A stretch of DNA of 36,197 bases from an uncultured Candidatus Saccharibacteria bacterium. GTDB lineage: Bacteria > Patescibacteriota > Minisyncoccia > Sungbacterales > SURF-37. Shown here in pieces: positions 3,823 to 29,238 of this stretch; positions within the stretch are counted from its first letter, which is position 1; each line of letters starts with the position of its first letter. The translations under genes were made by a program, and so were the position numbers. Location: NCBI GenBank assembly GCA_964373495.1, contig CAYJUW010000001.1, positions 1 through 36,197 on the forward strand, written 5' to 3'. Under the pieces are notes generated by a model. The model was given only the letters and a program-made list of their open reading frames with translations, ran no database searches and was not told where the DNA came from.

Positions 3823-3903
3823 CCCCGTTAGATCCCGAACGCTCCGGCTTGCCCCGTTAGAAACGATGTTTCTAACGGGGTGAAGGGTGGGGATCTAACG
3901 GGG
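3823..3903. repeat. Nested CCCCGTTAGA hairpin element
   Basis: Outer arms are CCCCGTTAGATCCC (3823-3836) and GGGATCTAACGGGG (3890-3903). The inner hairpin is CCCCGTTAGAAAC-GAT-GTTTCTAACGGGG (3852-3880). It begins 1 nt from the stop codon of the 3905-5482 gene. Confidence 0.9.
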
Positions 3904-11592: not shown

Positions 11593-12993
11593 CTAGGATT
11601 CCGGATTTTGAGTTTCACGCTTCACTTGGAGGCCGACCTCCTCAAGCTGCTTCGGATCAACCTCCGATGGCGTATTCATCATAGGATCGCGGGCGTCACC
11701 TGTTTTGGGGAAGGCCATGACCTCGCGAATCGAGGGCTCGTTCTGGAAAACCGCGACCAGGCGGTCAATTCCGGATGCAATGCCGCCGTGGGGCGGGGCG
11801 CCGTAGGTGTAGGCCTCGAGAAGATGGCCGAATTTCTCCTGGATTTCCTCGTTCGAATAGCCGAGGATGCCAAAAATCTTTTTTTGCAGGTCGGGACTGG
11901 TAATGCGGATGCTGCCGCCGGCGATCTCGTAGCCGTTTAGTACGAGATCGTACTGCAGCGAGCGCACCTTGAATGGGTCGGTATCGAGGAGCGGGATATC
12001 TTCCGTTTGCGGCGCGGTAAAAGGATGGTGCGAGGGTGAAATCTCCTGCGTTTCGGTTTTTCCGAAGAGCGGAAAGTCAGTCACCCAGGCGAAGGCCATC
12101 ACATTCGGATCTTTGTCCTCGCGGAGGTCAAATTTATCGGCGTCAAAGCGCTTCAGGGCTTCCCCGTGCGTGAGCCGCGGGAACGGTTTTTTGAATACCG
12201 TTTTGCCGGCAACTTTCTCGGCAAGATCGATATAGAGTTCCTCGATCAACGCGAGCACATCCTCGCGCTCGGCAAAGGCCATCTCAATATCAAGCTGCGT
12301 GAATTCCGGCTGGCGGTCGCCCCGCGTGTCTTCGTCCCGGAAACAGCGCGCAATTTGGAAGTAGCGCTCAAATCCGGCCGCCATCAAAAGCTGCTTATAC
12401 TGCTGGGGCGACTGCGGCAGGGCGTAGAACGTTCCGGGCTGGAGGCGCGAGGGCACGATGTAGTCCCGAGCGCCTTCGGGCGTTGATTTGGTGAGGATGG
12501 GGGTTTCGATTTCAATAAAGTTCTTTTGGCGCAGGAAATCCCGGATTGCTGCAATGATTCTGTCCCGCAGGACGATGTTTTGCGTTAACCGCTCGCGGCG
12601 GAGGTCGAGGTAGCGGTACTTTAGCCGGAGCTCTTCGTCAATATCGAGCCCCGGCGTGTCGAGCGGGAAGGGCGGTGTCTTGGCCTCGTTCAAGACCTCG
12701 AGCTTCTCAACCGGCAGCTCTACGGATCCGGTGGGAATGGCCGGATTTTCCATGCCTTGGGGCCGTTCGCGGACCGCGCCCTCGACGGCGATCACCCACT
12801 CCGGCCGGAGCTTCTCGGCTCTGGCGTAGAGCTCGGCATTATCCGGCCGAAAGACCAGCTGCAAGACTCCCGAGCCGTCCCGGAGGTCAATAAAAATAAG
12901 CTTGCCGTGGTCGCGCCGGCTTCCCACCCACCCGGCTACCCGGACTTGTTCTCCCACCCGTTTGGCGGTCGCACCCGTAAGAATCCGCTCCAT
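11593..12993 (-). CDS. aspS: Aspartate--tRNA ligase, bacterial-type catalytic core but lacking the GAD insertion domain
   Basis: FYALPQSPQQYKQLLMAAGFERYFQIARCFRDEDTRGDRQPEFTQLDIEMAF, HHPFTAPQ and GGIASGIDRL. ATG 12993 is the likely start; the track start at 13014 is a TTG. Confidence 0.9.
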   Translation of the reverse strand: MERILTGATAKRVGEQVRVAGWVGSRRDHGKLIFIDLRDGSGVLQLVFRPDNAELYARAEKLRPEWVIAVEGAVRERPQGMENPAIPTGSVELPVEKLEVLNEAKTPPFPLDTPGLDIDEELRLKYRYLDLRRERLTQNIVLRDRIIAAIRDFLRQKNFIEIETPILTKSTPEGARDYIVPSRLQPGTFYALPQSPQQYKQLLMAAGFERYFQIARCFRDEDTRGDRQPEFTQLDIEMAFAEREDVLALIEELYIDLAEKVAGKTVFKKPFPRLTHGEALKRFDADKFDLREDKDPNVMAFAWVTDFPLFGKTETQEISPSHHPFTAPQTEDIPLLDTDPFKVRSLQYDLVLNGYEIAGGSIRITSPDLQKKIFGILGYSNEEIQEKFGHLLEAYTYGAPPHGGIASGIDRLVAVFQNEPSIREVMAFPKTGDARDPMMNTPSEVDPKQLEEVGLQVKRETQNPES

Positions 12994-22252: not shown

Positions 22253-23524
22253 ATGTGGCTCGCAGTAGAAAAATTCCTTATCGCGTTCTTCCTGCCAATC
22301 CTCGGGTTTTTCTCGTTTCCGAACCGCGAGGCCGTACCGCCGCCCGCTGGGCTGGCAGCGGCGGTTGAGCAAACCGTTCCGCAGCCGACGATGCGGGGCG
22401 CTGCCACAAATGATGCAAAGGCCGCTCCTTCAGCAAGCTCAGGGCAGGTATATGCCGCAAAGGACTTATCGCTCGCGGCCCTGAAGGATTGCCTGAACCG
22501 CGCCGGTGAGAGCGGAAGCTGCCTCGATGCCATATTCCAAGATTTTTTTAAAATTCACACCACGGCAGACGCGCTCATCGCCCTCGGGCGCTACCAGGAA
22601 GCCGATACCGCTCTAAAACTCTCCTGCCACCCGGTCGTTCATGCCATCGGCCGCGAGACCTTCCGCCTCAAGGGCACGGTGCAGGATTCCTTTGCCGAGT
22701 GCGATCAGACCTGCCATTCCGGCTGCTACCACGGGGCCATGGAGCGGTTCCTGCGGGGCAATGCGGCGAGCGACGATGAAGCCGGGCACATCAGCGTGGA
22801 GGAGCTCCGACAAAAAGCGGCCCAGGCCTGCGATCCCAACCAGCCCACGCGCTTCCGCTTCCAATGCCTGCACGGCCTCGGCCATGCGCTGATGTTTTTC
22901 TCCGACTACCGGCTCGGCGAAGCGTTGGCTTCCTGTGACGTGCTGTCGGATGGTTGGAGCCGGAGTTCATGCTACGGCGGGCTCTTCATGGAAAACGTGT
23001 TTTCCGCCACGCCCGAAAAGCGCGATCTATCCCCTCATGACTACCACTACCCGTGCAACGTGCTCGATGAGAAATACCGGAGCGACTGCTACATGATGCA
23101 GACCACGCGTATGACCGAGATGGGCTTGGGGACGGAGCGTCTGTTTGAGGAGTGCCGTAAGGCCCGCCTGCCGGACGGGCAGGCCGGCGGGTACCAATTC
23201 ATCTGCATGCAGTCCATCGGCCGCGATCTTTCGAATGACGCCCGCATCGGCGATCCCCGGCTCGTGGCCCAAAAGTGCGAACTCGGGAGCGGCGAGGAAC
23301 GGCGGGCCTGCACCCGCGGCGTGGTCTACGCCCTGATTGACAACACCTGGGACGGCCGCTACGCCATGCCTTTTTGCAACACTTTTGGCGCCGCGGAGGA
23401 CGTTTCCTACTGCTACACGGCAAGTGCGGCCTACCTCCGAGCGACGTTTGAGAAGAGCGGGGCCGACATTGCGGCCGACTGCCATGCCTACGCGGCCGGG
23501 GTGTCGGCGTGCCTGCCCCGTTAG
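22253..23524 (+). CDS. Membrane-anchored Cys-rich repeat protein, function unknown
   Basis: N-terminal TM segment (FLIAFFLPILGFFSF). Repeated C-x(2-4)-G/H-containing units (CHSGCYHGAMERF, CLHGLGHALMF, CYGGLFMENVF, CMQSIGRDL, CTRGVVYAL). A GAGGTG SD lies 6 nt upstream. Confidence 0.7.
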   Translation: MWLAVEKFLIAFFLPILGFFSFPNREAVPPPAGLAAAVEQTVPQPTMRGAATNDAKAAPSASSGQVYAAKDLSLAALKDCLNRAGESGSCLDAIFQDFFKIHTTADALIALGRYQEADTALKLSCHPVVHAIGRETFRLKGTVQDSFAECDQTCHSGCYHGAMERFLRGNAASDDEAGHISVEELRQKAAQACDPNQPTRFRFQCLHGLGHALMFFSDYRLGEALASCDVLSDGWSRSSCYGGLFMENVFSATPEKRDLSPHDYHYPCNVLDEKYRSDCYMMQTTRMTEMGLGTERLFEECRKARLPDGQAGGYQFICMQSIGRDLSNDARIGDPRLVAQKCELGSGEERRACTRGVVYALIDNTWDGRYAMPFCNTFGAAEDVSYCYTASAAYLRATFEKSGADIAADCHAYAAGVSACLPR

Positions 23525-23578
23525 AGGCCCGCGCCTTGGGCGCGGCAGTCGCCTCTGGCGACTTGCCTCTAACGGGGC
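23515..23578. repeat. CCCCGTTAGAGGC three-way hairpin element; probable bidirectional terminator
   Basis: Outer stem GCCCCGTTAGAGGC (23515-23528) pairs with GCCTCTAACGGGGC (23565-23578) and encloses the hairpins CCGCGCC-TTG-GGCGCGG and AGTCGCC-TCT-GGCGACT. The TAG stop of the 22253-23524 gene lies inside the left arm. Confidence 0.85.
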
Positions 23579-27344: not shown

Positions 27345-28304
27345 TCAGAGCATGATTCTTACGACCTCGATGGTTTCAACTTTCTCCGTGAGCAGTCCGG
27401 CCTTGAGCATTAATTTTACCATGGCAAAAAGCAGAATCAAGCTGATCCAGTACACCGGGAGGGTGAGCATTTTGATGGCGATAAAGAAGCCGGCTGCGGC
27501 CAGGAACGGGAGGTAGGCGCGGTACGGCCCGGCGAGCTTTTCGATTTGGGTATTGGCTACGCGGTAGATGAGGTCCCCGCCGCGCTCCTCACCGGTGAGC
27601 TCGACCCCGAGCTCCTGGGCCAGCGCCCCCCGGTTCTCGCGCAGGAACTGGGCGCGCTCGGCCGCGGAGAGCTTTCGGACATCAATGTCAGGGCCGCCCT
27701 GCCACGCGGCAAAGGCCAGGAGCAGTTCGTCCACGGTGGCATCGCGGCGGAAGCCGGGCAGGAAATTTTGCAGCGGCTGCTCAATCAGGGGTATGGCGGC
27801 ATCGAAAAGGGCTTTGGGTAGGATGCTCTGGGTGGCCGCGCCCGAGACCGCGGTGAAGTAGAAGACGGCCAGGGTCAGGGCCACGGCGGTGAAGAATACC
27901 GGCAGGCCGCCGCGGAAAATTTTCCGCACGGCAAAGGCGTTGGAAATTCGGTACTCGCCGGCAATGGCATCGCTGGCGTACCAGCCGGCCGCGGCGCTGG
28001 CCGCGGCCGCGGATGCGGCCAGCGTGGTTGCCGGAACCAGGAGATAGCCGCCGGCAAGGGCCATCATGGCCGAGACCGTGCGCAAGGCCGGTCGCGTGAT
28101 AAAGGCCGAGGAAAGCGCAAAGAGGATGGCAAACAAAAAGAGCGCGATGACCGGCAGGGAGTAGAAGGTGAGACCGGCAAACCCCGTTAGATGCTCCGCG
28201 TCTAACGGGGCAAGCAGCACGCCTTTCCAGAGGTAGGCGTTGGCAAGGCCGGCCGCGACGGTGAGAACTCCAAGCGTGTATTCTTTCCAGTCTGGCTGTT
28301 GCAC
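27345..28304 (-). CDS. Hypothetical multi-TM membrane protein
   Basis: ORF with a GTG start. Its stop is 2 nt from the dnaJ ATG, which suggests coupling. No family recognised. Confidence 0.6.
28182..28210. repeat. CCCCGTTAGA-N9-TCTAACGGGG hairpin inside the 27345-28304 CDS
   Basis: Arms at 28182-28191 and 28201-28210. Encodes [10 protein letters not shown] in frame. Confidence 0.9.
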
Positions 28305-28596: not shown

Positions 28597-28709
28597 GGCG
28601 AGTGGCCGCTCGCAACACGCTCACCAACGGTGCGAAGATCGCATCCGGTGGGCGTTTTCTTTTTCAAGGTATCTCCTCGACTGCGCTCGGAGAATGAAAA
28701 TCTTCGGTA

Positions 28710-28849
28710 ACCGCACCGTACGCGGTGCGGTATCTGATTTTGAACGAGATCCCTCGTCCCGCTTTCGGCGGGACTCGGGATTATTGTTTGTTCCCGCCAT
28801 TCATCCGCGCCGCCCAGCGGCGCGGTATTCTGGCGGACAAACAATAAAA
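28710..28849. repeat. Three-hairpin structured element, copy C
   Basis: 138/140 identical to 19898-20037. The mismatches are at 28719 and 28734. Confidence 0.9.
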
Positions 28850-28944: not shown

Positions 28945-29238
28945 TCACCATTTCCCCCACTCGCCGCGAATCAGCTTTTCTTTCTTGGCGCGCGTCCAGC
29001 CCTTGATTTGCTTCTCCCGCCGGCGAGCGGTATCGAGATCTTCGTACGCCTCGGAGTACGCTACCTTCTCCGGTTTATGCTTCGCGGTGTATTTAGATCC
29101 TAGACCGGAAAGGTGTTGAGTCCAACGGGTGTCGGGTTGCCATGTGAGGCCTGTGTAATAAGAATCATCTCGGCATTTGAGGATGTAGACGTACCACTTC
29201 CAACCCCGCCTTTTGCATAAGGTATGCCTTCGATACAC
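28945..29238 (-). CDS. GIY-YIG nuclease-domain protein (YhbQ/UPF0213-like, 97 aa)
   Basis: WYVYILKCRDDSYYTGLT...RWTQH...YTAKHKPEKVAYSE...ARRREKQIKGWTRAKKEKLI. The only in-frame start is GTG 29238. Confidence 0.8.
   Translation of the reverse strand: MYRRHTLCKRRGWKWYVYILKCRDDSYYTGLTWQPDTRWTQHLSGLGSKYTAKHKPEKVAYSEAYEDLDTARRREKQIKGWTRAKKEKLIRGEWGKW

Follow-up and report, generated by a model that had tools for sequence, protein, structure and literature searches.

The window, that is, the whole 36,197-nt stretch of DNA analysed here (contig CAYJUW010000001.1 of an uncultured Candidatus Saccharibacteria bacterium), contains a 29-nt palindrome that lies within a gene for a helical membrane protein. 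The source genome (label G000) is represented by a Sungbacteria-like, 99%-complete assembly of 784 kb with 59% G+C. The features that make up the locus are the following:

27345-28304, minus strand: conserved, uncharacterised helical membrane protein of 319 residues with a GTG start, directly upstream of dnaJ
28182-28210, minus strand: palindromic element of 29 nt with 10-nt terminal inverted repeats, CCCCGTTAGA / TCTAACGGGG
28211-28214, minus strand: CTTG, read as the upstream copy (in gene direction) of a 4-nt target duplication, one base off the other copy
28178-28181, minus strand: TTTG, read as the downstream copy of the duplication; the CCGGT next to it matches CCGGC of the orthologue

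On the plus strand the element reads CCCCGTTAGA-TGCTCCGCG-TCTAACGGGG, with a 9-nt loop enclosed by two inverted arms of 10 nt (28182-28191 and 28201-28210), and the 49 nt around it fold as RNA with -24.9 kcal/mol (z = -3.5). The original prediction, made from the sequence of the window alone, held that this hairpin is embedded in the open reading frame (ORF) at 27345-28304 and is read as protein just after the first hydrophobic segment. Both parts are borne out: the arms are perfect, the CCCCGTTAGA 10-mer (with at most one mismatch) is present 15 times in the window where 1.98 are expected, the maximum in 100 shuffles being 5, and the minus strand of the element reads (A)PLDAEHLTG directly after the first hydrophobic helix, in an open frame that is in register on both sides. 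Direct reading of the element shows a stop in the frame CCC-CGT-TAG and none in the frames C-CCC-GTT-AGA and CC-CCG-TTA-GA; when a 29-nt element lies in either open frame, the right arm is open as well, giving SNG or LTG. Thus, an element placed in one of its two stop-free frames leaves the host gene open.

Orthologues of the membrane protein are present in 35 of the 41 sampled relatives, with alignments that begin at residue 3-7. The part of the protein upstream of the hairpin is well conserved in alignments of 12 and 38 homologues, with W26 found in 38/38 sequences and T15, G19 and N22 at 90% or above, and the 31 residues preceding the hairpin are kept as a hydrophobic helix across the orthologues. 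The next ATG lies near residue 79, and a start there would drop two conserved helices. As this N-terminal helix ahead of the hairpin is conserved in the orthologues, the hairpin is coding and is not part of a 5'-untranslated region (5'-UTR), which disposes of the doubt, raised together with the original prediction, that the true start might lie downstream of the hairpin. An AlphaFold model built on 38 sequences (mean predicted local distance difference test score (pLDDT) 90.1, predicted template-modelling score (pTM) 0.81) assigns residues 6-31 to helix 1 and residues 43-68 to helix 2, and places the insert in the non-helical stretch between them; the pLDDT of the blocks 31-40 and 41-50 averages 59 and 64, the lowest in the protein. 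The sequence data point to a coding hairpin that sits in this first inter-helix loop, apparently a general hotspot that tolerates insertions and deletions, and that is predicted to be translated as an extension of the loop. The insert would be both translated and tolerated in the cell, and its consequence for the membrane gene is modest, namely a tolerated loop extension. The protein matched no Pfam family, and a fold search of the confident model against the PDB returned nothing significant. A homologue with 74-76% identity (L028:54-1022) carries in the same loop an unrelated, non-palindromic insert of 8 additional residues (PAVSPVEP).

The hairpin segment is missing from every orthologue of the membrane protein examined. 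The closest of these (L025; 82% amino-acid identity), which has the same dnaJ neighbour, is 312 residues long (319 minus 7) and is without the element. Where the source genome reads GTGCTG-CTTG-(29-nt element)-TTTG-CCGGT-CTC-ACC, the orthologue reads GTGCTC-TTTG-CCGGC-GAGTTCAAGGAC-GCC-ACG, with one TTTG only. The net change in length is +21 nt, or 7 residues. A single insertion of 21 nt was considered and rejected, with only 6 of 18 aligned bases matching. Because the right flank TTTGCCGGT matches the orthologue sequence TTTGCCGGC that precedes the gap, an insertion of 33 nt combined with a loss of 12 nt is preferred. The event is accordingly best read as the probable arrival of the 29-nt element together with a 4-nt duplication (33 nt, 11 codons), beside a separate loss of the 12 nt coding for EFKD. 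It had been suggested that an alignment of orthologues be used to test for an insertion of 10 residues; an insertion is indeed found exactly here, and is absent from every relative examined, but the net gain is 7 residues.

The hairpin is one member of a large family. Across the source genome the CCCCGTTAGA 10-mer has 80 exact and 164 near copies, and short hairpins of the exact form number 14 as against 0 for a reversed control pattern. When the motif arms were paired like brackets across the genome, 63 elements of 26-187 nt were obtained, 54 of them outermost; orphan half-sites of the motif represent degenerate elements. The ends of the family are constant and the interiors diverse, to the extent that the interiors of the ~100-nt members are unrelated to one another. 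Nested elements also exist, in which a hairpin lies in the loop of a larger member, and one such inner copy has its own CAAG/CAAG flanks. Exact 4-nt direct flanks are seen in 24 of the 54 outermost elements, compared with 2.8 under shuffled pairing (maximum 10 in 1000 trials), and the 4 nt further outward match in none of the 54. Two identical 62-nt copies at unrelated loci carry different duplications, CTGG and CCAG, suggesting recent movement. Most of the outermost elements (32/54) are intergenic although the genome is ~79% coding by rough gene calls, and many copies of the family abut stop codons. The length plus 4 is divisible by 3 in 9 of the 10 copies that lie well inside strongly scoring genes, as against 14 of the 32 intergenic copies. 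Three further candidates, attC sites, DNA-uptake sequences and RNase III processing stems, for which the flanks had been taken as inverted, were rejected on the ground that the tabulated flanks are direct repeats.

Beyond the source genome, 13 of the 41 relatives, belonging to four families of the order, contain the exact hairpin. With one genome taken per species, a scan detected the hairpin pattern on at least 119 contigs; for this 20-base pattern ~7 chance matches are estimated, and hence a few of the listed contigs may be noise. The matches listed, to which all figures for other phyla given here refer, include Patescibacteria (with a Sungbacteria metagenome-assembled genome (MAG)), Omnitrophota (with the complete genome of Velamenicoccus archaeovorus), Nitrospirota, Planctomycetota, Desulfobacterota, Gammaproteobacteria, Elusimicrobia and Bacteroidales, as well as one contig binned as archaeal (an Aenigmatarchaeota MAG), which is weak evidence for archaea. 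The commonest length is 29 nt (40 of 86 listed copies before de-duplication). Among unique copies, 38/84 have exact 4-nt direct flanks against 5.3 shuffled and 1 in the control, and the flanks follow the form R|YNNR-element-YNNR|Y, with a pyrimidine at position -4 in 81/84 and a purine at position -1 in 82/84. These flanks fit a symmetric RYNNRY target that is cut with a 4-nt stagger. In a coding test on 124 unique copies, which called for an open frame of at least 150 residues with at least 25 residues on each side, copies of frame-preserving length lay in long open frames in 22/71 cases and copies of other lengths in 1/53. The peptides of the in-frame copies take the form xPL[D/E]..LTG, as in the membrane gene, or xPVR..SNG[V/A]. 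This bias in length across phyla indicates that entry into coding sequence is characteristic of the family in general, with selection on frame acting as a filter. The claim that hairpins of this kind have entered coding sequence without breaking frames is therefore upheld both in the source genome, where 9 of 10 in-gene copies keep the frame, and in other phyla.

The search for a mover within the source genome gave mostly negative results. The DDE_Tnp_1, rve and TnpB families are absent from it (other DDE families were not searched), self-BLAST of the genome revealed no multi-copy unit of the size of an insertion sequence, and none of the long end pairs in it that have matching flanks stands up as an autonomous copy. 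None of the protein families within 4 kb of the hairpins is enriched at the 119 loci of other phyla, and RAYT-like and GIY-YIG genes occur near hairpins at background rate. A candidate, in the form of a small nuclease gene with the same ends, came from one of these loci (L118), where a 14-nt inverted repeat of this type of motif, TCCAGTTACAAATC / GATTTGTAACGGGA, encloses an 85-residue GIY-YIG ORF exactly. In metagenomes, 80 loci encode homologues 61-89% identical to that ORF. Bracketing, defined as CCCGTTANA within 70 nt upstream of the gene and its complement at the 3' end, was observed in 68 of the 75 loci with both flanks and in 2 of 101 with a control geometry shifted by 450 nt. The typical unit has the arrangement CCCCGTTAGAGAT - 8-20 nt - ATG ... 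CGG-TTC-TTA-TCT-CTA-ACG-GGG with a modal length of 279 nt, and its terminal repeats are CCCCGTTAGAGAT...ATCTCTAACGGGG. The nuclease (85-87 residues; e.g. L170:242-502) is the sole gene of the ~279-bp unit, and its ORF extends across the right repeat; the stop falls on the first three bases of the flank (TAA, TGA or TAG) in 16 cases. The 85- and 87-residue proteins match the Pfam GIY-YIG domain (PF01541) with E = 4e-17 and 3.7e-18; the nearest solved structures of tiny GIY-YIG proteins are the UPF0213 members 1zg2 and 1ywl, with a weak match to Slx1. Gene-less elements of 29-124 nt occur on the same short contigs as the nuclease units, at about one per 7 kb.

The relatives of the source genome have 0-16 tiny GIY-YIG genes each, some of them with stop codons. 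Their closest homologues of the nuclease (57-73% identical) share its ends; TGAG or TGAA duplications accompany some of them, and three are located at host start codons. The more distant homologues in relatives (42-55%) are bracketed by other, clade-specific inverted repeats. Tiny GIY-YIG genes with an inverted repeat of their own were noted at L240, L243, L248, L250, L254, L255, L257, L259 and L260, the repeats including GCCCTCCCAACTTTTTGGAT, GCCCGGTGTTACACTTCGAT, GTCCCCCACCTATCAAGGAT and ACCCCCACACTCAAACGCC; the sequences suggest a possible superfamily of paired nucleases and repeats. The full-length units at host start codons (L231, L233, L236) are arranged as ..cATGAG|unit|TGAG..., such that the last A of the unit and the duplicated TG restore the host ATG while the duplicated TGA ends the nuclease ORF. 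Many 279-nt units from related organisms (L162, L171, L176, L183, L188, L190, L207 and others) lie at what seems to be one and the same host-gene junction, ..VFDAIRQL | unit | ATG..PPEPK.., and may be old inherited insertions or products of site-specific homing.

Taken as a whole, we consider it probable that the hairpin is a gene-less copy, comparable to a MITE (a transposable element of the miniature inverted-repeat type), of a miniature mobile element that landed in frame, with the GIY-YIG unit as the most likely parent. The family, with its terminal inverted repeats of 10-14 nt (CCCCGTTAGA...), would enter degenerate palindromic RYNNRY sites and duplicate the central 4 nt. A 29-nt copy with a 4-nt duplication would have inserted into the loop that joins the first two transmembrane helices, where an adjacent loss of 12 nt would leave the net gain of 7 residues. 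This insertion of a mobile element in frame at the membrane gene is the firmest part of the proposal, and we regard it as very likely. The short hairpins would then most likely be internal-deletion derivatives of the ~279-bp unit, moved in trans by its nuclease. This enzyme might recognise the paired repeats, perhaps as a single-stranded DNA hairpin or a cruciform, as Ssn and Slx1 relatives do, and might cut both the ends of the element and the target; the element could then enter a 4-nt staggered break at RYNNRY and host repair fill the stagger. That the GIY-YIG unit is both parent and mobiliser of the hairpins is a view to which we lean, with considerably less assurance than we have in the insertion itself, and the nuclease would presumably be the agent that moves the elements. 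More tentatively still, and with doubt slightly uppermost, the hairpins might belong, as its non-autonomous form, to a new class of prokaryotic transposon, whose autonomous unit of ~279 bp codes only for an 85-87-residue GIY-YIG nuclease, whose nuclease clades co-diversify with their terminal repeats, which is spread over many bacterial phyla and possibly DPANN archaea, and which repeatedly adds 9-11 residues to protein loops.

Several observations weigh against this proposal. At 28182-28210 the duplication matches in three of four bases (CTTG/TTTG), and the reading also requires a deletion of 12 nt as a separate event. Among the short copies, about half are without matching flanks, though such flanks still obey YNNR, and the flank pair CTTG...TGAA recurs across phyla. 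Of the full-length contexts, only 10/64 have an exact duplication, and many resemble old insertions at one host locus in related organisms. No cognate, i.e. motif-bracketed, GIY-YIG gene is found in the 99%-complete source assembly, whose two small GIY-YIG genes reach no more than ~42% identity and are flanked by different repeats; the assemblies of the hairpin-richest relatives (G008, G038 and G039) are likewise without the cognate nuclease. Furthermore, GIY-YIG enzymes are hydrolases for which we know of no strand-transfer activity, and the origin of the duplication is thus not accounted for.

Among the other explanations, one would have the elements be hairpins akin to repetitive extragenic palindromic (REP) sequences and REPINs, moved as single strands by Y1 (HUH) transposases of the type of REP-associated tyrosine transposases (RAYT). 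The source genome does possess two Y1_Tnp genes, one of which (C33:587-1309) is RAYT-like in appearance, and the elements resemble REP systems in being very short, mostly intergenic palindromes of high copy number, such systems having a single-copy gene that is thought to spread them. Yet neither of the two genes is flanked by the motif, and presence of Y1_Tnp is uncorrelated with it (9/13 motif-positive versus 20/28 motif-negative relatives, with G008 and G038 containing hairpins and no Y1_Tnp), on which basis Y1/RAYT was rejected as the mobiliser; the RAYT-like gene seen within 1 kb of 3 of the 119 hairpin loci in other phyla corresponds to background gene density. Y1 HUH transposition and REPs leave no target duplication, whereas 4-nt duplications are strongly in excess here. 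This explanation is consequently improbable. The palindrome-associated transposable elements (PATE) derived from IS200/IS605, whose hairpins are subterminal, which lack terminal inverted repeats and which insert, with no duplication, on the 3' side of a fixed tetra- or pentanucleotide, are not matched either, as the repeats here are terminal, the flanks are variable YNNR duplications and there is no TnpB.

An equally improbable alternative sees in the motif a site with a function, selected at each place, be it an operator for a protein, a stem that serves to process or stabilise RNA, or a terminator; the copy in the membrane gene would then be a regulatory structure of the mRNA. The conservation of the exact 10-mer across phyla, the stable RNA fold of the hairpin, the compensatory changes in the inner stems of near-copies of the 62-nt member on other contigs, and the location of the only tRNA-Pro(UGG) gene between two arms might all be understood in this way. 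Against this, the target duplications and the identical copies at unrelated loci are marks of insertion events, and the absence of a copy from all orthologues of the membrane gene implies that the gene does not need the hairpin. The elements have no Rfam match (a scan of the window returned two tRNAs only), and most copies are without a T-run after them. The many copies that adjoin stop codons can be attributed to the target preference, TRAA/TTYA. Copies of the mobile element may nonetheless hold a function gained after insertion.

The third possibility, that the start codon of the membrane gene is downstream and the hairpin belongs to its 5'-UTR or promoter, appears very improbable: a GTG start without a clear Shine-Dalgarno sequence, and the insertion of other family members at start codons, would agree with it, but all orthologues retain the 31 upstream residues as a hydrophobic helix, with W26 invariant in 38 sequences, a start at the next ATG near residue 79 would remove two conserved helices, and the frame stays open and in register before and after the hairpin. 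Hardly credible, finally, is a local palindrome produced by chance or template switching and unrelated to the other copies, for although the net difference from the orthologues is 21 rather than 33 nt and ACGGGG-TTT could in principle be an ancestral T-G-F, the arms are identical to the 10-mer found 80 times in the genome, the flanks fit the target pattern of the family, and the 21-nt model agrees so poorly (6/18 bases).

The closest published system to the proposed pair of nuclease and hairpin is Ssn/NTS (Chenal et al. 2025, PMC11893778), which comprises single-domain GIY-YIG nucleases of about 100 residues (CDD clade cd10448) that cleave single-stranded DNA at specific sites, and whose genes are flanked by NTS/SRM hairpin repeats that number in the hundreds. 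The authors note the insertion sequence-like architecture of NTS-ssnA-NTS, and the words 'duplication' and 'MITE' are absent from the text of PMC11893778. Both systems have a small, single-domain GIY-YIG gene flanked by hairpin-forming repeats, plus many gene-less copies. The units described here differ in having one half-palindrome arm on each side of the gene, in contrast to the complete hairpins that flank the Ssn gene; in their motif, CCCCGTTAGA, which is unlike the published NTS consensus CGTCATTCCCGCG...; and in the presence of copies with 4-nt target duplications and of copies in frame in genes. In the source genome, a small GIY-YIG gene between rplC and rplD (G000:C9:8586-9055) is flanked by inverted copies of CCGTCATTGCGAGC, which resemble that NTS consensus.

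In their in-frame behaviour, and in this feature only, the elements recall the Rickettsia palindromic elements (RPEs), selfish palindromes that, in the account of Ogata et al. 2000 given in PMC10969869, lie in frame in unrelated protein-coding genes and are translated as extra loops. RPE-1 to RPE-10 are ~100-150 bp long and belong to Rickettsia and its relatives, whereas the commonest form here is 26-35 bp and occurs in many phyla. The motif differs as well, the host is Patescibacteria-like, and the ends of the present element are shared with a nuclease-coding unit. We know of no enzyme or autonomous form identified for the RPEs.

Bacterial MITEs (Correia/NEMIS, Nezha, RUP and others; PMC10969869) are gene-less elements of high copy number with terminal inverted repeats, a target duplication and an autonomous relative that shares their ends. 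The present family has terminal inverted repeats (63 pairs), a duplication of fixed length (4 nt) and, in L025, an empty site; the autonomous element with the same ends would correspond to the ~279-bp units, which are found in metagenomes and relatives and not in the source genome. It departs from known MITEs in its parent unit, for the known parents encode DDE transposases, while the unit here has only a GIY-YIG nuclease, which is not a known transposase type. To our knowledge, moreover, the commonest form of 29 bp is shorter than any known MITE. Literature searches directed at the motif, and at GIY-YIG elements that combine inverted repeats with duplications, turned up no account of either.

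If the proposal is correct, the ultra-small genomes of uncultivated bacteria would be remodelled by 33-bp additions that lie as extra loops inside essential-type genes, and that annotation pipelines and alignments would see as unexplained insertions or deletions. The 279-bp nuclease-only unit would be a testable candidate for a new, minimal transposition system, far smaller than any known insertion sequence and with an enzyme outside the DDE, DEDD, HUH, serine, tyrosine and Cas1 classes. It would also suggest a possible selfish origin for the Ssn systems of nuclease and hairpin repeats, and an 85-residue sequence- or structure-specific nuclease with a recognition repeat of 10-14 nt would be of practical interest. 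The wider interest thus lies in a cross-phylum, frame-tolerant mobile palindrome of 29 bp with a candidate parent of 279 bp that codes for a nuclease only.

Other members of the family are found elsewhere in the window (no strand is assigned to them):

3823-3903: nested member with TTTA/TTTA flanks and an inner 29-nt hairpin at 3852-3880; it begins 1 nt past the stop codon of the neighbouring gene
20536-20664: intergenic composite member of 129 nt, with outer arms CCCCGTTACAACC.. and an inner 27-nt hairpin at 20616-20642
21935-22035: 101-nt variant, CCCCGTTTGA...TCAAACGGGG, with CGGG/CGGG flanks, between tRNA-Ala and tRNA-Lys
23516-23577: 62-nt member that folds as a three-way junction and overlaps the 3' end of the gene at 22253-23524

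Three loci on other contigs of the source genome also contain family members of note. A UvrD/PcrA-type helicase gene (L148, G000:C13:5800-8400) carries two in-frame members, 68 and 80 nt long, and so holds one of the in-gene copies counted above. In the alignment to PcrA (1pjr) the first is seen as a gap of ~29 residues that immediately precedes the conserved FIGTFHS, and the second falls in a poorly aligned region. A GyrB-like gene (L150, G000:C2:27300-31200) has a 101-nt member (105 nt with the additional 4) in its putative N-terminal extension, preceding the conserved YGA..VLKGLEPVRKRPGMYIG block. The sole tRNA-Pro(UGG) gene (12215-12286, minus strand) lies between a CCCCGTTAGA and a TCTAACGGGG arm at G000:C6:12196-12304, with the flanks TTCA/CAAG, an arrangement that represents either DNA captured between two ends or two insertions. 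Upstream of the membrane gene, a repeat of ~157 nt at 28692-28848 recurs at 19898-20052 and on contigs C11 and C15 with 95-99% identity; the intergenic stretch that contains this repeat and a GIY-YIG gene at 28945-29238 is a hotspot for small mobile DNA.

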